In this document: in pieces, positions 8,516 to 58,313 of the stretch
Position numbering within the stretch: position 1 is the stretch's first letter
How the letters are laid out: every line of letters starts with the position of its first letter
Assembly: GCA_903857665.1 (NCBI GenBank)
Contig: CAIOFV010000106.1
Location: 12,027 to 76,026, forward strand
From: an uncultured Myxococcales bacterium
GTDB lineage: Bacteria > Myxococcota_A > UBA9042 > DTJE01
Reading direction: 5' to 3'
Length of the DNA: 64,000 nucleotides
The notes under the pieces: generated by a model
The model's input: the letters and a program-made list of their open reading frames with translations, nothing else
Told to the model about the DNA's origin: nothing
Databases searched by the model: none
Translations under genes and position numbers: made by a program

Positions 8516-9943
8516 ATGACGGACGGTGACCTGAAGGCGGCGTGGCGCGGGCAGTACGCAGACGTCCCGACGACGCTGGCACGCATGGCGGAAACGGGTC
8601 GCGTGGTGACGGCGTTCAACGCCAACATCGACGCGGTGATCAAGGTGCCGGGAACGCGAATCGCCGAACTGGCGGCGGCCACGGGGCTGGACCGGGGGGC
8701 GCTGGACGCCGCCCTGGCCCGGGTGATCCGGACACCGGCGGACCTGGTGCGCGGGCTGATGAGGTGCTTCGCGTCGGGGATCGCCGAGGAGTGGCTGATC
8801 GAGGACCCAGCGGTATACCGGTGGGCCTGCGAACAGGTGGGATGCGACCGGACCCAGATGGGCGGCCAGGCGGGCATCGTGGCCAACGCGATGGCGGTCT
8901 GCGGCGTCCGGGACGTGCTGGTCCATTGCGCCTCGCTGCCGGCCGACCAGGCCCGGCTGTTCCTGGACCTGCCGAACCTGCGATCGACCGGGGCGGACGG
9001 CCGGCTGGTGCAGGCCCGCGGCATCGCCCGGGACGACCCGCCGATGGTCCACTGGATCCTCGAGTTCGACGGCGGCGACGTGATCCCGCTGCCCGGCGGC
9101 GACATCCTTCGGTGCCCGAAGTCGAACCGGTTCATCGCCACCTACGACCCCATGAACCTGGCGCTGCACGTGGATTCGGCGTTCGCGCGACAGGTCGAGG
9201 CGCTGCCGTGCGACGCGATGATCCTGTCGGGCTACCACCTGCTGACCGAAACGCTCCCGGACGGGACACGGGGCACCGATCGCGTGGACGCGTCGATGGA
9301 CGCGGTGCGGGCGTGGCGTCGCGCCAGCCCGGAGTGCCTGGTGCACCTGGAGGTCGCATCGACCCAGGACCGGGTGGTCCGGCGGCACGTGCTGGAAGGG
9401 CCCGCGCGGCAGGTCGATAGCATCGGAATGAACGAGCGCGAGACGATCGACCTGATCGAGCTGCTGGACGACGACGGGCTTGCGGCACTGTGCAACCGCG
9501 AGCCGCGCGCCGACCACCTGTTCCGGGCGGTGCTGAGGGTGTTCCGGCACACGGGCTGCCCGCGCGTCCAGCTGCACATGTACGGCCTGTACGTGACGAT
9601 CCAGCGCAAGGGCTTCCGGGTCGGCCCGATCGCCAACCGGCGCGGCATGCAGACGGCGGCGGTGGTGGCCGCGGGCAAGGCGGGCACGGGGGCGATCGAC
9701 ACGCCGGCCGCGCTGCTGTGGGCCCGCGACCGGGACGTGTCGGACGTGGGCCTCGGCGAACTGAGGCGGCTGGCCGCGTTGCCGGAACTGGGCGGCGCCG
9801 GGGGCAGACTCCTGGCGACAGGCATCCATGAAGGCCCCGACTTCGACGTCATCGCGGTGCCCACGATCCTGGTGGAGCGGCCGGTGACGCTGGTCGGGAT
9901 GGGCGACACGATCTCGTCGGTGTCGCTGGTTGCGGCGCGGTAG
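8516..9943 (+). CDS. ADP-dependent glucokinase/phosphofructokinase family kinase (glucokinase-type residues)
   Basis: FNANIDAV, MGGQAGIVAN, VHWILEF, NRFIATYD, SIGMNERE and the terminal VGMGDTISS with the catalytic Asp. ATG at 8516 follows AGGAGG. Confidence 0.88.
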   Translation: MTDGDLKAAWRGQYADVPTTLARMAETGRVVTAFNANIDAVIKVPGTRIAELAAATGLDRGALDAALARVIRTPADLVRGLMRCFASGIAEEWLIEDPAVYRWACEQVGCDRTQMGGQAGIVANAMAVCGVRDVLVHCASLPADQARLFLDLPNLRSTGADGRLVQARGIARDDPPMVHWILEFDGGDVIPLPGGDILRCPKSNRFIATYDPMNLALHVDSAFARQVEALPCDAMILSGYHLLTETLPDGTRGTDRVDASMDAVRAWRRASPECLVHLEVASTQDRVVRRHVLEGPARQVDSIGMNERETIDLIELLDDDGLAALCNREPRADHLFRAVLRVFRHTGCPRVQLHMYGLYVTIQRKGFRVGPIANRRGMQTAAVVAAGKAGTGAIDTPAALLWARDRDVSDVGLGELRRLAALPELGGAGGRLLATGIHEGPDFDVIAVPTILVERPVTLVGMGDTISSVSLVAAR

Positions 9944-9964
9944 GGCGGGTCGGACATCAAGTGC

Positions 9965-10034
9965 GCCCGAGGCGACTCCGTCTGCGGCGAGAGTTTCCTT
10001 CGGAAACCCATCGCCTGCGCCTACGTGCTCGGGC
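9965..10034 (+). repeat. 70-bp palindromic dispersed repeat, copy 1
   Basis: GCCCGAG...CTCGGGC ends with central hairpin GTTTCC-TTC-GGAAAC; lies between the convergent kinase and tex genes. Confidence 0.9.
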
Positions 10035-10037
10035 GGG

Positions 10038-12221
10038 CTACACCTTGTTGCCCAGCCCCTTCGCCGACAGCGATATCCGGCGCCGCGGCAGGTCCACCGC
10101 CAGCACCCGCACCTTCAGCCGCAGGCCGGGACGCGCGACCTCGGACGGCTGTCGCACGAACCGGTCGGCCAGCTCGCTGACGTGGACCAGCCCATCCTGG
10201 TGCACGCCCACGTCCACGAAGGCGCCGAAGGCCGTCACGTTGGTGACGACGCCTTCCAGTTCCATGCCCGGCTTCAGGTCCTCCAGCGTTCGCACGTCGT
10301 CGCGGAACCGCAGGGCCTCGAACTCGCGCCGCGGGTCGCGCCCGGGCTTCTTCAATTCGGCCAGGATGTCCCGCAGGGTCGGCAGGCCCACGTCGCCGAG
10401 TGCGTAGCGCGCGATGTCGATCTTCTCCACGGCCTCCGGGTGGCCCACCAGCGAGGCCAGCGTCACGCCCAGGTCGCGGGCCATCCGCTCGACCAGGCCG
10501 TACCGCTCGGGATGCACGGCCGAGGCGTCCAGGGGATGCGACCCGCCGCGCACGCGCAGGAAACCCGCCGCCTGCTCGAAGGTCCGGGGGCCCAGCCGCG
10601 GCACCGCCATCAGGTCCTTGCGCGACGTGAAGCCGCCGCGGCGATCCCGCTCGGCCACGATCGCGCCCGCCAGGTTCGGACCGATGCCCGAAACGTAGGC
10701 CAGCAGCGCCGCCGAAGCGGTGTTCACCTCGACGCCGACACCGTTGACGCAGTCCTCGACGACCTCGTCCAGGCGCTTCTTCAGGCGCCCTTCGGCCACG
10801 TCGTGCTGGTACTGCCCGACCCCGATGGACTGCGGGTCCACCTTGACCAGTTCCGCCAGCGGATCCTGCAGGCGGCGGGCGATGCTGATGGCCCCGCGCA
10901 CGGTCAGGTCCAGATCCGGAAACTCCTCGCGGGCGATGTCCGAAGCGCTGTACACGCTGGCGCCGGCCTCGCTGACCGCCACCACCAGCACGTCCTTGGC
11001 CCCGGAGGCCGCCAGCGCGTCCCGCACGAACGCCTCGGTTTCGCGGCCCGCGGTGCCGTTGCCCACGGCCACGGCGTCCGGACGGTGCCGGGCCACGAAC
11101 GCCCTGAAGTCCGCAGTGGCCCGGGCCGCGGACGCGTCGCCGCTGTGCGGATACACCGTCACGTGCCCCTGGAAGGCGCCCCGGGCATCCGCGGCCGCGC
11201 ACTTGCACCCGGTACGCAGCCCCGGATCGACCCCCACCACCGACCGGCCCCCGAAGGGCGGCGCCAGCAGCAGCTCGCGCAGGTTCGCGGCGAACACCTC
11301 CACCGCGTCGCGCTCGGCCCGGTCCGCCACCTCGCCCAGGATCTCGCCGTCCACCGCCGGGCGGATCAGCCGGTCGAACGCGTCCTCGACCGCCGCGACC
11401 AGCTCGCCGGCCCAGGGCGAGCGAGGGTCATGGTTCATCCGCGCCAGGGCCCACTCGATCAGGGGGCCGTCGTCCGCTTCCACCTTCACGCGCAGGATGC
11501 CCTCGGCCTCGCCGCGCCGGACCGCGAGGAACCGGTGCGACGGCAGGCGCGACAGGGCCTCCCGGTATTCGTAGTAGCCCTCGAACTTGGTCGGGCCGGT
11601 CGCCTTGGACTTGATGACGTCGGACCGCAGCGCGCCGCGTTCGCGCAGGGTTTCCCGGACCCGGGCCCGGACATCGGCCCGGTCCGCGGCGGTCTCGGCC
11701 ACGATGTCCCGGGCGCCCGCCAGCGCCGCGTCGATGTCCGCCACGGCCTTCGCCGCGTCGTCCGAGGCGTGGACGTAGGCCAGCGCCTCGTTCCGCGGAT
11801 CGCCGTCCCGGGGCTGGGCCAGGATGCGCGCGGCCAGCGGATCGAGGCCGCGTTCCCGCGCCATGCCCGCGCGGGTGCGCCGCTTCGGCCGGTAGGGCAG
11901 GTACAGGTCCTCCAGCTCGGCCTTCGTGACGCAGGCCTCGATGGCGGCCCGCAGCGCGTCGGTCAACTTCCCCTGCCCGGCGACGGACTCCAGGATCGCA
12001 CGCCGACGCTTGTCCAGGTCCACCAGGGCATCCCGGCGCTCGGACACCGCGCGAATCGCCACCTCGTCCAGCCCGCCGGTCACCTCCTTCCGGTAGCGGG
12101 CCAGGAAGGGCACCGTGGCCCCCTCGTCCAGCAGACGCAGCACCGCGCTGATCGAGGACGTGGGCAGGCGCAGTTCGGCGGCCAGGATCGGCAGCGGATC
12201 GAAGGGGGACGCGTCGGCCAT
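10038..12221 (-). CDS. tex: Tex/YhgF RNA-binding transcriptional accessory protein
   Basis: GATVPFLARYRKE, ELEDLYLPYRPKRRT, GVDPGLRTGCK, QDPLAELVKVDPQSIGVGQYQHDV and a C-terminal S1 domain. Confidence 0.95.
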   Translation of the reverse strand: MADASPFDPLPILAAELRLPTSSISAVLRLLDEGATVPFLARYRKEVTGGLDEVAIRAVSERRDALVDLDKRRRAILESVAGQGKLTDALRAAIEACVTKAELEDLYLPYRPKRRTRAGMARERGLDPLAARILAQPRDGDPRNEALAYVHASDDAAKAVADIDAALAGARDIVAETAADRADVRARVRETLRERGALRSDVIKSKATGPTKFEGYYEYREALSRLPSHRFLAVRRGEAEGILRVKVEADDGPLIEWALARMNHDPRSPWAGELVAAVEDAFDRLIRPAVDGEILGEVADRAERDAVEVFAANLRELLLAPPFGGRSVVGVDPGLRTGCKCAAADARGAFQGHVTVYPHSGDASAARATADFRAFVARHRPDAVAVGNGTAGRETEAFVRDALAASGAKDVLVVAVSEAGASVYSASDIAREEFPDLDLTVRGAISIARRLQDPLAELVKVDPQSIGVGQYQHDVAEGRLKKRLDEVVEDCVNGVGVEVNTASAALLAYVSGIGPNLAGAIVAERDRRGGFTSRKDLMAVPRLGPRTFEQAAGFLRVRGGSHPLDASAVHPERYGLVERMARDLGVTLASLVGHPEAVEKIDIARYALGDVGLPTLRDILAELKKPGRDPRREFEALRFRDDVRTLEDLKPGMELEGVVTNVTAFGAFVDVGVHQDGLVHVSELADRFVRQPSEVARPGLRLKVRVLAVDLPRRRISLSAKGLGNKV

Positions 12222-20535: not shown

Positions 20536-21261
20536 ATGGAACGCCGAATCGCCACGGGAATCGCGCTGATGATCGCCCTCGCCCTGCCGGCCCAGGCCTT
20601 CGCGGGCTGGGGCCTGGTGGACCTGGAAATCGGGGCCAAGGGCGGGGCCGGCGGGACGCTGTGGACCAAGCCCACCAGCCAGCCGGCATACCTGATGAGC
20701 CAGGATTGGGCCTTTTCCCAGCGCCGGGGCGGCTGGAGCGGCACCGGCGGCCTGTATGTCCAGTTGCGCCTGCTGAAATGCCTGGGCATCGAGGTCGATG
20801 CCCTGGTCGAAGAGAGCCGGATTCGCGAGACGCCCTGGACGGGTTCCTCCTGGGAACTGACCGCCAAGGCCGTCACCATGCACGTGCCGGTCCTGGTCCA
20901 GGGCCTGTTGCCCTTGCCCGGCGTGCGCATCGGCGTCGTCGTAGGCCCCGAGTTCGTCTTCCCGATGTCCACCTCGGCCCAACTGTCCAACGCACCGCCG
21001 CCCGGCGTGCCGACTCCCTATCCCTTCAAGGTGGACTCGAAGTTCGCAACGTTCCTGACGGTCGGCATCAACATCACTCCCACGATCGGCCACCTCAGCA
21101 TCCCGGTCGACCTCCGGGCTTCGTACAACGTGACCCAGTCGTCGAAGTACGATGACCGCGTCGCGTGGAACAGCCCTGGAGACATCGCCAAGGGCTTCAC
21201 CATCCACTACCAGGACACCTGGGACTTCCGGCTGCTGGTCGGCCTCGGGTACGCGTTCTGA
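20536..21261 (+). CDS. Outer-membrane beta-barrel (porin-like) protein
   Basis: Signal peptide (AQAFA), amphipathic strands and a C-terminal aromatic motif VGLGYAF; GAGGAGG RBS. Confidence 0.7.
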   Translation: MERRIATGIALMIALALPAQAFAGWGLVDLEIGAKGGAGGTLWTKPTSQPAYLMSQDWAFSQRRGGWSGTGGLYVQLRLLKCLGIEVDALVEESRIRETPWTGSSWELTAKAVTMHVPVLVQGLLPLPGVRIGVVVGPEFVFPMSTSAQLSNAPPPGVPTPYPFKVDSKFATFLTVGINITPTIGHLSIPVDLRASYNVTQSSKYDDRVAWNSPGDIAKGFTIHYQDTWDFRLLVGLGYAF

Positions 21262-21333
21262 GCAGGGGCCGGCGGGCTCGGGGCTTGGTGGGCCGGGGGA
21301 GCGGGGTGCCTGACTCCGCGGGCCGGCGCTCGT

Positions 21334-21490
21334 GGGTTACCCAAGTAGATGACGGGCGCGCGGGTGGGGATCGCTACCCGAGGTGGGTTGCGGCAGCATG
21401 TTCGTTCGCGCCTGAACCGCTGCGCAGGCACACCCGTCCCCCGGCCGCGCCGTCCGGTCCCTCGCGATGCCCGGCCGGCCCCTGGGGCTT
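21334..21490 (+). repeat. ~155-bp repeat, left copy (inverted partner at 24470-24627)
   Basis: 21418-21483 is identical to the reverse complement of 24478-24543 (66 nt); similarity extends to GGGT(T/G)ACCCAAG. Confidence 0.85.
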
Positions 21491-24469: not shown

Positions 24470-24627
24470 AGGCCCCGAGGGGCCGGCCGGGCATCGCGAG
24501 GGACCGGACGGCGCGGCCGGGGGACGGGTGTGCCTGCGCAGCGTTCAGGCGCGAACGAACGCGATGCCGCAACCCACCTTGGGTAGAGGGCATCCTACGC
24601 GAAGCCAGACACCCGCTTGGGTCACCC
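24470..24627 (-). repeat. ~155-bp repeat, right copy (inverted relative to 21334-21490)
   Basis: Reverse-complement alignment by eye with the left copy. Confidence 0.85.
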
Positions 24628-24823
24628 GTGCGCGCCGGCCCGCGGAGCAGGCACCCCGTTCCCCGGCCCACCACGCCCCGAACCCGCCGGCCCCGCCCCA
24701 CACCGTACCCGGATCACCCGCGGGAGACTTGTACCCACACCCCAAACAAACCCTATTGAAGTCCGCGTTTTGCAACCCCGCATTCAACCTCATCCCCCGT
24801 CCCCGCCTCTCGCAATCCCCTCA

Positions 24824-30445: not shown

Positions 30446-30514
30446 CGCGGGCGTACCCGGCGTCCAGCGACCGTACCTCCTCGCTGGGCGCCGGGCACCA
30501 CTACTGTTGGAGTG

Positions 30515-30584
30515 GCCCGAGGCGACTCCGGCTGCGGCAAGAGATTGCAAACGCAATCCCTCGCCTCCGCCTTCGTGCTCGGGA
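30515..30584 (+). repeat. 70-bp palindromic dispersed repeat, copy 2
   Basis: GCCCGAG...CTCGGGA ends with central GATTGC-AAAC-GCAATC. Confidence 0.9.
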
Positions 30585-30595
30585 TGAGTGGAGTG

Positions 30596-30619
30596 GCCCG
30601 AGGCGACTTTGGCTCGGGC
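30596..30619 (+). repeat. Internally deleted 24-bp mini copy of the 70-bp repeat
   Basis: GCCCGAG-GCGACTTTGG-CTCGGGC. The 20-mer TGGAGTGGCCCGAGGCGACT is duplicated at 30508 and 30589. Confidence 0.8.
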
Positions 30620-30664
30620 GGATCCGGTATGCTAGCCCGCGTGCCCGGGTCGCAGGAGTATCCG

Positions 30665-32707
30665 ATGGCCGTCCTCTGGACGATCCCCGAACGGTGCCGA
30701 CGCTGCTACACCTGCGTCCGGGACTGTCCCGCGAAGGCCATCCAGGTCGTAGGGGGCCAGGCCCGCGTCGTGCCCGAGCGCTGCATCGCCTGCGGCAACT
30801 GCGTGAAAGTGTGCGCCCAGGGCGCCAAGCGCGTCCGGGACGACATCGAGGAAGTGCAGGCCCTGCTGGCCGGCGACAAGCCGGTGTTCGCCTGCGTGGC
30901 GCCGTCCTACCCGGCGGCCTTCGACACGGTGGAACCGGGACGCGTCATCCAGGCGATCCGCGCGCTGGGCTTCGCCGAGGTGTGGGAGGTCGCCTTCGGG
31001 GCGGAACTGGTGGCCCCGGCCTACCTGCGCCTGTTCAACGAGGCCCGGAGGACCGGGAAGCCGGTGATCGCCACGCCCTGCCCTGCCGTCGTGACCTACA
31101 TCGAAAAGTACCTGCCCGAACTGCATGACTACCTCGCGCCGGTAGTGTCGCCCAAGATCGCGGTGGCGCGGGCGATCCACCAGAAGCACAACGGCAACGT
31201 CCGCGTGGTCTTCATGGGACCGTGCGTGGCCAAGAAGCAGCACCTCCACACCGAATCGAACAGCGCGCTGGACGCGGTGCTGACGTTCGACGAACTGAAC
31301 CGCATGTTCATCGCGGCGGGCGTGGACCCCGCCGATCAGCCCTTGAGCAGCTTCGACGGGCCGCGCGCCCACATCGGGCGGACCTTCCCCATCAGCGGCG
31401 GGCTGCTGAAGACCGCCGGCATGGGCGCGGACCTGCTGGACGGCGAGATCGTCGGCACCGAGGGCAAGGACCGGGTGCTGTCCACGCTGAAGGACCTGGC
31501 CGCCGGCCGCTCCCATGCGCTGTTCTATGACGTGCTGTTCTGCGAGGGCTGCATCGACGGCCCGATGATGCTGAACAACCTCAGCGTACTGGCCCGCAAG
31601 GAACTGCTGGTGCGTCACATCAACGACCGCGCGCGCTTCGTGTCGCATCGCGAGCTGGCCGAGTCCCTGGGCGAGTTCGAGGGCCTGGACCTGTCGCGGA
31701 CGTTCGAGCGGGAAAACCTGAGCCTGCCCCAGCCTCCCGAGGAGGACATCGTCCGGACGCTGGAGCGCATGCGCAAGGCGCTGCCCCAGGACCAGCTGAA
31801 CTGCGGCGCCTGCGGCTACCCGACGTGCCGGGAAAAGGCGATCGCCGTGTGCCAGGGGCTGGCCGAACCGGCGATGTGCCTGCCCTTCCTGGTCGACGAA
31901 CTGGAGCAGGTCGTCACGGACCTGCGCCAGTCGCACGAGGAGCTGGCGACCACACAGAAGCAGTTGCTGCGATCCGAGCGGCTGGCCTCGATGGGCCAGC
32001 TGTCGGCGGGCATCGCCCACGAGCTGAACAACCCGCTGGGCACGATCCTCCTCTACAGCCACATGCTGATGCGCGAGGTCCGGGACGACCGCGGCAAGGA
32101 GGATCTGCAGCTGATCGTCAGCGAGGCCACCCGCTGCAAGGACATCGTCCGCGGCCTGCTGGACTTCGCCCGCAAGTCCCGGGTGTCCAAGGCGCCGGCC
32201 GACCTGCGCGAGGTGATCGAGGAGGTCGCGGGGATCGCCCGGCCTCGCGCCGGCGAGATGCGCGTCGAGGTGACCACGTCGGTGGCCGACGACATGCCGG
32301 TGCTGATGATCGACCGGGTCCAGTTGCGGCAGGCCCTGGTCAACATCGCCATGAACGCGGTGGACAGCATGCCCGGCGGTGGCACCCTGCACCTGGCCGC
32401 GCGCATGTCCGATTCGGGCGACGACGTGCGGATCGAGATCACGGACACCGGCTGCGGCATCCCGCCCGAAAACCTCAGCCGCCTGTTCACGCCGTTCTTC
32501 ACCACCAAGGCGATGGGCAAGGGCACCGGCCTGGGCCTGGCGATCACCTACGGCGTGATCAAGATGCATTCGGGCGACATCACGGTCGACAGCGAGGTCG
32601 GCAAGGGCACGTCCTTCACGATCCGCCTCCCAGTGCGGACCGCGGAGGCGGTCGGGGACGATGGAAGCGCGCGGGAGTACCGCGTCGAGGAACAGTATTT
32701 CCGGTAG
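30665..32707 (+). CDS. Sensory-type [FeFe]-hydrogenase domain fused to a histidine kinase (group C1-like)
   Basis: 2x[4Fe-4S] ([23 protein letters not shown]), divergent H-cluster motifs TPCP / GPCVAKK / FCEGCIDGP, FeS domain [11 protein letters not shown]-box AHELNNPLG and an HATPase domain. Confidence 0.88.
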
Positions 32708-32750: not shown

Positions 32751-33134
32751 ATGAGCGACGTGAAGAAGGTTCTGCTGGTGGACGACGACGCGGACCTGGT
32801 AGCGGTCAACCGTGCGGTGCTGGAAAACCACGGGTTCGCGATCGCAACGGCGTACTCGGGCCCGAAGGGCCTGGTGGCCGCGAAGGCCGAGGCGCCGGAC
32901 CTGATCGTGCTGGACGTGATGATGGGGACCAACAGCGAGGGCTTCGACCTGGCGCGCGCCCTGAAGAAGGACGAAGCCACGAAGCACATCCCGCTGATCA
33001 TGGTCACCTCGGTCAACACGACGGTGCCCTTCAAGTTCGAGCCGGACGCGAAGTACCTGCCGGTGGACCGTTTCCTGGAAAAGCCCCTGGCGCCCGAGGC
33101 GCTGCTGAAGGAAGTCCAGGGCATGCTTTCCTGA
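32751..33134 (+). CDS. Single-domain response regulator
   Basis: LVDDD, LDVMM (phospho-Asp), MVTS, LEKP. Confidence 0.9.
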   Translation: MSDVKKVLLVDDDADLVAVNRAVLENHGFAIATAYSGPKGLVAAKAEAPDLIVLDVMMGTNSEGFDLARALKKDEATKHIPLIMVTSVNTTVPFKFEPDAKYLPVDRFLEKPLAPEALLKEVQGMLS

Positions 33135-33206
33135 GTTCCCGCCGGAGCCGCAGTCGCCTCGGGCCCGCTCCGTGTGTTCCCGAGTACCCAGCCCGCGGAG
33201 GTCATC

Positions 33207-44927: not shown

Positions 44928-45007
44928 TTCGATCCTCCTCGATTCGCCGGATAGCCAGCGAATACGATCGGACGCACCGGAATGCAAGGACCGCCGCGTT
45001 CGCCCCC

Positions 45008-45077
45008 GCCCGAGCACGGAGGCTGCGGCGAGCGATTGCGCATGCAATCTCTTGCCGCAGCCGGAGTCGACTCGGGC
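45008..45077 (-). repeat. 70-bp palindromic dispersed repeat, copy 3
   Basis: Reverse complement reads GCCCGAGTCGACTCCGGCTGCGGCAAGAGATTGCATGCGCAATCGCTCGCCGCAGCCTCCGTGCTCGGGC. Confidence 0.9.
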
Positions 45078-45138
45078 ACCCGTGAAACGATCGGGCACGC
45101 GCGAACGGGCCCCATCCCGGAGAATCATCATCCTAGAA

Positions 45139-48775: not shown

Positions 48776-48812
48776 CGCAAGCCGGAGGGGCGTGACGCCC
48801 CGGGAGGTACCG

Positions 48813-49379
48813 ATGGACTCCACGACCCCCGCCACCGCGGGCGGGTTCGAGCCGCGGATCACCGCCTTCGTGTGCAACTGGTGCACGTACACGGGCGCCG
48901 ACCTGGCGGGCACCAGCCGCCTGCAGATGGCGTCGAACGTGCGCATCATCCGCCTGCCGTGCACCGGGCGCATCGACCCGATGTTCATCACCAAGGCGTT
49001 CGAGCGCGGCGCCGACGGCATCATCGTGAGCGGCTGCCATCCGGCGGACTGCCACTACAACGCCGGCAACTACCACGCGCGCCGCCGCTTCGCGATCTTC
49101 CGCGAACTGATGGACTTCCTGGGCGTGGACCCCAGCCGCATCACGTTCAGTTGGGTGTCCGCGTCGGAAGGCGCCAAGTGGCGCGACGTGGTCAACGATG
49201 CAGTGACCCGCGTCCGGGCGCTGGGCCCGTTCACGGCCTATCGCAACATGGTCGTGGTTCAGGCCACGGCGCCCAAATCGTCCTCGCCCGAGCACGCAGG
49301 CGAAGGCGAGGGATTGCCCATGCAATCTCTTGCCGCAGACGGAGTCGCCCCCGGCGCCTCCAAGGAGGTGACGGCATGA
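48813..49379 (+). CDS. flxD: MvhD-type [2Fe-2S] subunit (FlxD) with a repeat-derived C-terminal tail
   Basis: FVCNWCTY.GAD, RLPCTGR, GCHPADCHY..GN, WVSASEG; position within hdrCBA-flx. Confidence 0.9.
   Translation: MDSTTPATAGGFEPRITAFVCNWCTYTGADLAGTSRLQMASNVRIIRLPCTGRIDPMFITKAFERGADGIIVSGCHPADCHYNAGNYHARRRFAIFRELMDFLGVDPSRITFSWVSASEGAKWRDVVNDAVTRVRALGPFTAYRNMVVVQATAPKSSSPEHAGEGEGLPMQSLAADGVAPGASKEVTA
49286..49355 (-). repeat. 70-bp palindromic dispersed repeat, copy 4, inside the flxD reading frame
   Basis: Reverse complement reads GCCGGGGGCGACTCCGTCTGCGGCAAGAGATTGCATGGGCAATCCCTCGCCTTCGCCTGCGTGCTCGGGC. Confidence 0.9.
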
Positions 49380-57542: not shown

Positions 57543-58313
57543 CTAGAGGTGGATGGGCGCACCGGCCGAGCCGCCGGACGTGTGGCACGAAGCGCAACCC
57601 ACGCCCCCGCTGCCGTCCACGTCGGTCGACATCGTCTTGGTCCAGGTGTTTCCGCCCGCCTGGTAGGTCACGCGGAAGTGCACCATGCCCGAGGGGCCGC
57701 CACTGGTCGCGAAGTTGCCGACGCAGTTGGTGGTGCCCAGGTTCACCGCGGTACCGCCGCCGGCCGGGATCGCGTCAACCACCACGCCGTCCACGCCCTG
57801 GTTGGAGTTGCCGCACTTGTCGCCGGCCGGCCCGTACACGGTGCCCGCGTAGGCGAAGCCGTGGCAGCCGGTGCAGTCCTGTCCGGGCCGCATCGTGAGC
57901 CCCTGGCCGGAAGGCGAGCAGGTGTTGCCCGGGCACGCGAAGGCCGGGGGAGTGCCCGGGTCCGTGGGACCGGGATCCGTGGGGCCGGGATCGGTCGGAC
58001 CGGGATCGGTCGGACCGGGATCGACCGCGCCGGGATCGCTTGCGCCGGGGTCGGTCGGACCGGGATCGACCGCGCCGGGATCGGAGCTCCCCGGATCCCC
58101 CGCGCCCGGATCCGCCTGGGCCAGGTCGCTGCCGGGACCGGAGTCCTCCCGGACGTCCGCCACCGCATCCTGCCCCGGGTCCGTCGGGATCCCGTTGTCG
58201 ATGCCGGACTGGGTGTCCTGTACGTCGGACGTGGAAGAGCTCGAGGACGAGGTGCACGAGAACGCCAACACCGACAACGACAACACCAGCGACACACGCG
58301 AACGGACGACCAT
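57543..58313 (-). CDS. Lipoprotein with 11 xxDPG repeats and two CxxCH (c-type heme) motifs
   Basis: Lipobox AFSC; MRPGQDCTGCH and GCASCH. Confidence 0.75.
   Translation of the reverse strand: MVVRSRVSLVLSLSVLAFSCTSSSSSSTSDVQDTQSGIDNGIPTDPGQDAVADVREDSGPGSDLAQADPGAGDPGSSDPGAVDPGPTDPGASDPGAVDPGPTDPGPTDPGPTDPGPTDPGTPPAFACPGNTCSPSGQGLTMRPGQDCTGCHGFAYAGTVYGPAGDKCGNSNQGVDGVVVDAIPAGGGTAVNLGTTNCVGNFATSGGPSGMVHFRVTYQAGGNTWTKTMSTDVDGSGGVGCASCHTSGGSAGAPIHL
57954..58118 (-). repeat. Coding tandem repeat, 11 x 15 bp (xxDPG)
   Basis: Seen directly in both the DNA and the translation. Confidence 0.9.

Follow-up and report, generated by a model that had tools for sequence, protein, structure and literature searches.

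The stretch of DNA analysed here, 64,000 nt in length (the window), corresponds to positions 12027–76026 of contig C106 in the draft genome G000 of an uncultured Myxococcales bacterium (5.04 Mb in 173 contigs, 69.5% G+C, estimated 93% complete). It contains four copies of a hairpin-forming repeat, located at 9965–10034 (copy 1) and 30515–30584 (copy 2) on the plus strand and at 45008–45077 (copy 3) and 49286–49355 (copy 4) on the minus strand. A sequence-only reading made earlier had placed four 70-nt copies at these coordinates, and all four are read there. The three congeners of G000 are designated G001, G002 and G003.

Copy 1 lies between convergent ADP-dependent kinase and Tex-like genes. 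Its hairpin belongs to a subfamily with the inner stem GTTTCC/GGAAAC and is the top nhmmer match in the genome (71.8 bits). The head of this copy, ACATCAAGTGC, occupies 9954–9964 on the same strand and is defined by direct reading, by the conservation of heads among copies and by clean junctions between filled and empty sites. The tail GGG at 10035–10037 (plus strand) fits the tail consensus GG(G/A). The DNA fold of copy 1 has an energy of −18.7 kcal/mol (z = −3.0), and the orthologous site in both G001 and G002 is without the element.

Copy 2 is of the GATTGC/GCAATC subfamily, as seen by direct reading and nhmmer, and lies between co-directional [FeFe]-hydrogenase and hydrogenase-like histidine kinase genes. 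Its head, CTGTTGGAGTG, at 30504–30514 (plus strand), is read directly and by comparison with G002; the TTG in it may be derived from the target, as the empty site of G002 ends in ...GTTTTG. The single-stranded DNA (ssDNA) fold of copy 2 has a z of −1.7. A repeat finder detects a tandem derivative directly downstream (30585–30625, plus strand), which is made of a spacer/head TGAGTGGAGTG, a 24-nt mini-hairpin at 30596–30619 and a tail GGATCC. The mini-hairpin is an internally deleted form that starts 11 nt past copy 2, and it folds with −10.5 kcal/mol (z = −5.0). A comparable 18-nt mini copy adjoins C105:190039 in G000. About 115 nt, covering copy 2 and the mini-hairpin, is missing from the orthologous site of G002, and the G001 site is without the element as well.

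Copies 3 and 4 are on the minus strand. Copy 3 (45005–45088, direct reading and nhmmer) lies between divergent genes and includes a head at 45078–45088, the hairpin and a tail at 45005–45007. Its mid-stem is repaired to 9 bp, GGCTGCGGC/GCCGCAGCC, and none of the other three copies folds as stably (−26.4 kcal/mol, z = −4.75). Copy 4 (49283–49366, direct reading) has a head at 49356–49366, a hairpin with a degraded outer stem and a tail. When translated, it forms the C-terminal tail of the FlpD/MvhD open reading frame (ORF) at 48792–49379; the Pfam domain stops at residue 145, and copy 4 supplies residues 166–187. Two changes are present in its outer stem and the long-hairpin fold is not formed (z = −0.7). 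At the 3′ end of the FlpD/MvhD gene, G002 keeps GCCCGAGCACGTAGGC and G003 keeps CCCGAGCACGGAGG, corresponding to 10–16 nt of the end of the element. Copy 4 may be an old insertion that was partly deleted internally in G002 and G003. A decayed remnant with the 5′ arm only is found by the repeat finder at ~33113–33169 (minus strand), between response-regulator and hybrid-kinase genes, and matches as an orphan 5′ half at C106:45163–45192. The inner stems of copy 1 and of the other three copies, the 9-bp stem of copy 3 and the gene settings of the four copies (by gene calls and domain search) agree with the earlier description. Two parts of that description are modified. The hairpin is exactly 70 nt as claimed, but the mobile unit is bigger because it includes head and tail; and the unit folds back on itself in copies 1–3 by ssDNA folding, but not in copy 4 with its mutated outer stem.

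The whole unit is composed of a 7–11 nt head, a 70-nt imperfect hairpin and a 0–5 nt tail, usually 81–84 nt in total, with a base composition of ~70% G+C. The head is conserved and non-palindromic and stands directly 5′ of the stem. The consensus reads TGGAT[C/G]G; CAAGTG and TTGAGTG are among its variants. Neither the head consensus nor its variants carry a GTAG-type tetranucleotide next to the 5′ base of the hairpin, so the earlier statement that the family has no GTAG REP head is borne out. The tail is short and G-rich and stands directly 3′ of the stem. The secondary structure was drawn by hand on an alignment of 78 distinct copies with flanks, and the pairs were counted, because RNAalifold performed poorly on subfamilies that shift register by one base near the loop (only 8 pairs on the raw MAFFT alignment). 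Numbers below are alignment columns. The outer stem of the hairpin has 7 bp (GCCCGAG...CTCGGGC in nearly all copies), and the arms pair imperfectly over ~34 nt. At columns 20 and 22, past the outer stem, the 5′ arm has two conserved bulged bases. Register is kept through the middle section, from 23-74 to 38-59, which is interrupted by four nearly constant pyrimidine-pyrimidine mismatches (25/72, 27/70, 31/66 and 33/64). The top of the hairpin has a GGCGA/TCGCC stem followed by a 6-bp apical stem with a loop of 3–4 nt.

Several pairs in this structure change on both sides. Pair 13-82 is GC in 45 copies, AU in 9, CG in 8 and UA in 3, while pair 23-74 is AU in 41 and GC in 35 with two exceptions; two-sided changes also occur at 38-59, 42-54 and 45-51. 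None of 500 column shuffles matches the observed pairing values. When the 3′ partner is slid by 1–3 columns, pairing is 34–46%, compared with 76.5% in register. In the dominant subfamily of G003, GTCGA/TCGAC or GTCCA/TGGAC replaces GGCGA/TCGCC in a compensatory manner. The two-sided pairs, both controls and the G003 stems uphold the compensatory base changes proposed earlier and show that the hairpin is maintained through such changes across subfamilies. The subfamilies differ in the closing base pair and the apical stem, and there is a shorter 60-nt form with a GCGCGAT...ATCGCGC apex. Integron attC sites were considered as an identity for the hairpins and rejected, because GTTRRRY/RYYYAAC core sites and cassette arrays are both lacking.

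Three rounds of nhmmer over the 5.04 Mb of G000 find at least 128 copies, 115 of them nearly full length, in line with the earlier suggestion of many copies genome-wide. Most copies are single and dispersed over at least 60 contigs; several form direct tandem arrays with a period of 81–85 nt, and several stand at contig ends. The 18-mers of the element are the most frequent in G000. The other recurrent 18-mers belong to a (GTACCC)n microsatellite and to coding repeats, and by this measure the element is the only abundant non-coding interspersed repeat family of the genome. The number of nhmmer copies and the rank of the 18-mers exclude chance as the origin of the copies. Median pairwise identity among G000 copies is 0.77 and median nearest-neighbor identity is 0.91.

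The distribution is restricted to one genus. A covariance model finds at least 106 copies in G000, one decayed copy in G001, at least 109 in G002 and 41 in G003. No match is found in 37 further relatives at the level of family, order or class. Of 301 sampled genomes from 208 genera of the phylum, the 297 outside these four species give none either, which agrees with the lineage specificity claimed before. A strict sequence pattern was also run over ~185,000 species with one genome each, and only the uncultured Myxococcales bacterium Loclat_bin-06029 is matched. This pattern catches 53 of the 128 copies in G000 and ~75 places in Loclat_bin-06029; scaling from these counts suggests that the latter carries roughly 180 copies. 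Copies per species in the genus range accordingly from 1 to about 180. At gathering scores Rfam has no match anywhere in the window, and within 9900–10100 there is none up to E ≤ 1; the sequence-only reading had not recognised the repeat as a named family. BLAST against plasmid and phage collections gives no match to the element either.

Comparison of orthologous sites provides the evidence of mobility. The flanks of nine G000 copies were searched in the three congeners, and all seven sites with clear matches on both sides are without the element. Copy 4 is the eighth site, where the full copy is absent from the congeners and the short remnant is left, and copy 3 is the ninth, with only its right flank matched. 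In the reverse comparison, a G002 copy faces an empty G000 site at 23 of 47 mapped sites, and only one site is confirmed as common to G000 and G002. A metagenome scan yields 59 contigs, most of them ~95% identical to G000. Against these ~95%-identical contigs, 21–23 sites are common, 17 differ by presence or absence and four tandem arrays are unequal. The insertion differences between species and within the ~95% population indicate that the element has moved recently. Nearest-neighbor identities of 0.98–0.99 among the copies of G002 and of G003 likewise point to recent bursts in both. In one case, L168:3875–3942 of the metagenome compared with C76:38559–38584 of G000, a copy is inserted directly beside CATG in the related population. 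By our reading this CATG would hold the start codon of a minus-strand fabF-like gene, with the insert placed between the ribosome-binding site and the ATG.

The tandem arrays raise the possibility that the repeat spreads mainly by local recombination or replication slippage, similar to MIRU or variable-number tandem repeat (VNTR) loci, with dispersed copies as rare by-products. Direct arrays are common, some of them end contigs, and those that differ between G000 and the related population do so by whole units (3 vs 2, 2 vs 1). However, most copies are single and dispersed, the 17 presence/absence differences in the close population involve single copies at unrelated loci, and slippage cannot seed new loci. 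The probability that slippage is the main route is close to negligible. VNTR-like arrays are seen at C10:1996–2144, C105:180079 and C46:1047 of G000 in comparison with L159, L191 and L143 of the metagenome. MIRUs resemble the present family as 50–100 bp units in operon spacers that form variable direct tandem repeats and can be translated through. MIRUs differ from it in being non-palindromic and oriented with transcription, and they are not reported inside housekeeping coding regions.

The junctions define what is inserted. Where filled and empty sites can be compared cleanly, head, hairpin and tail are inserted together with no duplicated target, and the head is missing from the empty sites. 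A search of 142 single copies finds no consistent offset or length of a target-site duplication, and the clean junctions have none; both results agree with the earlier claim that there is no such duplication. In a flank-to-flank search (4–6 nt, all offsets), 61 6-mer repeats are observed versus 12.5 expected, with no fixed offset. Part of this excess is head-like sequence past the tail, which represents remnants of tandem copies.

These junctions bear directly on whether the element is an ordinary miniature inverted-repeat transposable element (MITE), that is, an internally deleted insertion sequence (IS) of the DDE type whose arms are terminal inverted repeats and whose transposase is elsewhere or was lost from the bins. 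The outer 7 bp do form a perfect inverted repeat continued by the imperfect pairing of the arms, internally deleted mini-versions are present, and insertion sequences are often lost in the binning of metagenome-assembled genomes (MAGs). On the other hand, the 142 single copies and the clean junctions give no consistent target-site duplication, and the insert extends past the inverted repeat into head and tail bases that are not palindromic. Split half-elements bracketing a gene are absent from G000 and from 385 kb of metagenome contigs, within the limits of draft assemblies; only decayed remnants are found. We regard a DDE-type origin as improbable. The known MITEs Correia/NEMIS, RUP and ERIC are similar to the family in size, terminal inverted repeats, transcript hairpins, intergenic location and non-autonomy. 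They typically have target-site duplications (e.g. TA) and a parent IS, whereas neither is found here. Among the tested features of DDE-type MITEs, the family therefore has the terminal inverted repeats and lacks the duplication and the parent IS.

Taken together, the four window copies are best explained, with a probability of roughly 0.8, as members of a family of small non-autonomous mobile DNA elements. Copy number, restriction to one genus, the compensatory hairpin and the lack of duplication all support the REP/MITE-like structured element of the sequence-only reading. The element inserts without target-site duplication, in either orientation and mostly between genes, and it is amplified locally into the direct tandem arrays. 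Copies that land in genes with a length divisible by three add 27–28 residues and survive, and most hairpin cores are free of stop codons in every frame. The hairpin would be a cis-acting signal recognised by a trans-acting enzyme, which most likely acts on the element folded as ssDNA, as in REP/REPIN systems and HUH tyrosine transposases. Any effect on host transcripts or proteins would then be a by-product.

The landing sites were examined with genes from a codon-usage gene caller written for G000. There are 80 copies in 414 kb of intergenic DNA, compared with ~25–33 copies inside predicted genes in 4.6 Mb of coding DNA. The intergenic copies are distributed as 8 in convergent, 28 in divergent and 44 in co-directional spacers, in proportion to spacer length (chi-square p = 0.87). 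Relative to the flanking genes, 18 copies are in the same and 26 in the opposite orientation. GC skew reveals no orientation bias (p = 0.78 for 56 copies on the G-rich versus 60 on the C-rich strand), and calculation windows of other sizes give similar results. With respect to local gene direction there is no bias either (60:52). No T-tract is found next to the hairpins. The even orientation, the lack of a T-tract and the lack of preference for gene ends argue against a terminator or a dedicated regulatory role.

The same data weigh on the view that the hairpins are a host-selected regulatory or structural RNA, such as an mRNA stabiliser, a processing site or a terminator, which has been duplicated around the genome. 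REP and Correia elements influence mRNA stability, the structure here is conserved with compensatory changes, and many copies lie within operons, where co-transcription is expected. Nevertheless, orientation relative to genes is about even, convergent gene ends are not enriched, T-tracts and Rfam matches are lacking, and copies occur in coding regions in both orientations. A conserved regulatory role would predict common sites, but sites are almost never common between species and many differ in the 95%-identity population. We consider a host-selected RNA very improbable.

The copies inside genes have a distinct character. Pfam domains are intact on both sides of the copy in transketolase, BamA/Omp85, RecD2 helicase and NAD-dependent DNA ligase (LigA), and also in a B12-binding/radical-SAM protein, a TonB-dependent receptor and an MFS transporter. 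These in-frame copies, some of them in essential genes, add 27–28 codons. Compared with orthologs, the inserts measure 81, 84 or 87 nt, each divisible by three, at most in-gene sites with clear alignments, and 66–81 nt, less consistently, at one site. When LigA is aligned to its E. coli counterpart (PDB entry 2OWO), the 27 extra residues fall between positions 101 and 105 of the latter, just upstream of the adenylation lysine motif, and the alignment holds on both sides. Hairpin cores are open in all six frames in 56 of 88 cases, versus 8 of 88 for shuffled cores. Phase was determined for 22 in-gene copies of G000 and G002 with strong coding signal on both sides. Nineteen of them use the codon phase CCC-GAG...TCG-GGC (p = 4e-7), which encodes PEAASSPARVSFGNPSPAPARSG or PEHAGAGDGFPKETLAGDGVASG depending on orientation, both rich in Pro, Glu, Ala, Gly and Ser (PE...SG). 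Of the three exceptions, one has an indel and ends in the usual phase, and two use alternative phases that are not arginine-rich; the arginine-rich phases are used by none of the 22. We infer from this bias that the encoded peptide is under selection. In-gene copies occur in both orientations.

The closest known behavior, in-frame insertion, is that of the Rickettsia palindromic elements (RPEs), which the account in PMC10969869 (from Ogata et al. 2000, 2002) describes as small palindromes located in-frame within unrelated housekeeping genes. By that description, both families are palindromic, have no known transposase, are found between genes and, with unusual frequency, in-frame in housekeeping genes, and add a peptide while the protein is kept. 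By the same description, RPEs are ~100–150 bp long and AT-rich and reside in obligate intracellular alphaproteobacteria, whereas the present units are shorter, high in G+C and carried by a free-living host with a ~5-Mb genome. Direct tandem arrays are a further difference; the likeness to RPEs is one of behavior and is drawn by description only. Given the base composition and the hosts, common descent with RPEs is unlikely.

In architecture, the closest known elements are REPs and REPINs (PMC3116915, PMC3337134), which are mobilised by REP-associated tyrosine transposases (RAYTs, or TnpA-REP; also PMC3479197). Both are high-copy, mostly extragenic bulged palindromes with a short conserved motif 5′ of the stem. 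They have no target duplication, form subfamily populations per genome and are restricted in lineage. REPs also offer a candidate enzyme. The Pfam domain Y1_Tnp is found in no gene of G000 or G001, in one gene of G002 and in three of G003. These four Y1 genes are flanked by repeats other than the element. In G003 these include GTAG-headed REPs, GTAGGGCGGGGGCCCCGTCCCCCGCC, and both G002 and G003 have inverted repeats of the GGGACAGTCACC type; neither kind is found in G000. One of them, at 1339–2180 of C32 (L131) in G003, is a bona fide RAYT (NF047646, 98 bits) between GTAG-headed REPs. Its intergenic site happens to be the one that holds window copy 1 in G000. The Pfam search suggested that G000 has no RAYT, and this turned out to be a false negative, overturned by tblastn, NCBIfam and PDB matches. 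With the G003 RAYT as query, tblastn locates a single-copy, divergent RAYT-like gene in G000 at C3:8015–8641. The encoded protein aligns to E. coli TnpA-REP (PDB entry 4ER8, E = 7e-8), and the alignment takes in the HUH motif (NHYHVL) as well as the Tyr region (RYVMENPVRHGYV...WPFG). A (GTACCC)5 microsatellite, of the top 18-mer family outside the element, lies just downstream of this gene.

The RAYT-like gene has an ortholog with 64% identity in G002, none in G001 and only relatives of 28–31% identity in G003. The gene and many copies occur together in G000 and G002, and G001, where the gene is missing, has a single decayed copy. When synteny was used to look for loss of the gene in G001 and G003, the neighboring gene was also found to be without an ortholog there. 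One RAYT-like gene together with one REP-like repeat family in G000 fits the REPIN-RAYT picture. Several features differ from that picture: the family has no GTAG head, no copy stands beside the RAYT-like gene, young copies occur in G003 without an ortholog of the gene, copies are frequent in genes, and tandem copies all point the same way, unlike the inverted copies of BIMEs. With neither GTAG head nor flanking RAYT, the family lacks the tested defining features of REP/RAYT membership. The product of C3:8015–8641 is the only candidate enzyme found, and that it mobilises the element is a tentative and somewhat doubtful proposal. The gene, like the head and tail, the tandem arrays and the frequent in-frame insertions with their codon-phase bias, is an addition to the sequence-only reading.

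Several observations count against a non-autonomous mobile element of the kind proposed above. No enzyme is tied to the element so far. On NF047646 ("REP-associated tyrosine transposase"), the RAYT-like protein reaches 78.7 bits, just short of the curated cut-off of 80, and the covariance model has no match above 14 bits within 1.5 kb on either side of its gene in G000 or G002. G003 carries its 41 very similar, apparently young copies with no close ortholog of this gene. Among near-identical G003 copies the head is more variable than the hairpin, which a simple model with fixed ends does not account for. A strictly lagging-strand ssDNA mechanism of the IS200/IS605 type usually leaves a strand bias, and the lack of bias speaks against such a mechanism. 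All genomes compared are draft MAGs, so that the numbers of copies are minimum values and some mobile genes may be absent from the assemblies. The IS200/IS605-derived PATEs and the ends of IS608 and ISDra2 have extrahelical bases, a short conserved 5′ sequence and no duplication, as here. They differ in having two different subterminal hairpins rather than one, in inserting on the 3′ side of a fixed tetra- or pentanucleotide found in the empty site, where the present head is absent, and in showing replication-strand bias.

The variable head is of interest for another idea, in which the hairpins would be a class of transposon independent of a cognate flanking RAYT and of a DDE transposase. The element would move as a one-unit circle or single strand, consisting of the hairpin and an 11–14 nt spacer opened at variable points, and would have evolved to be harmless when translated in one phase on both strands. 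Variable opening would explain why head and tail have a near-constant sum while each varies, and harmless translation would permit the colonisation of essential genes. We think this unlikely. The last alternative is that the copies are genomic integrations of retron-type multicopy single-stranded DNA (msDNA) or another reverse-transcribed hairpin. Myxococcales are rich in retrons, and the 70-nt length of the hairpin, its short unpaired ends and the lack of target duplication would be compatible with it. However, the occurrence of reverse transcriptase genes does not follow that of the element: five are present in G001, which carries a single decayed copy, G000 has one partial match, and no element-like sequence adjoins any such gene in G000, G002 or G003. 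The chance of a retron origin is next to nil. The family of small non-autonomous mobile elements, to which we assign the window copies, is a new relative of REP, MITE and RPE-type palindromic mobile repeats, not a new kind of system.

Three other features of the window are recorded here. The ORF at 30641–32707, downstream of copy 2, has a domain similar to the [FeFe]-hydrogenase large subunit with Fe-S motifs fused to HisKA/HATPase_c, which suggests a putative hydrogenase-like sensory kinase; it adjoins the true [FeFe]-hydrogenase gene and two response-regulator genes. Long inverted repeats at 21254–21487 and 24474–24705 are 99% complementary over 70 nt and reach ~230 nt. They flank a ~3-kb block of three small genes that looks like a separate mobile or invertible cassette. 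Nine tandem 15-nt units (CCGGGATCGGTCGGA-like) at 57940–58119 lie within the minus-strand ORF 57543–58295 and would be translated as a repeated pentapeptide.

Bacterial genomes are shaped by small palindromic repeats, whose spread is understood only for REP/RAYT and a few MITEs. The repeat has practical consequences, as it breaks MAG assemblies at contigs that end in the element and, with most of its reading frames open, would mislead gene callers. The 27–28-residue inserts in LigA, transketolase, BamA and RecD2 reveal sites at which these proteins tolerate additions. The candidate RAYT partner, unproven as it is, is open to biochemistry. The genus itself provides a natural experiment, with species that carry 1, 41, at least 128 and about 180 copies, and with a related population that already differs in insertions and copy number. 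In a free-living, high-G+C host, the family gives a second, unrelated example of the Rickettsia type of selfish DNA in genes.

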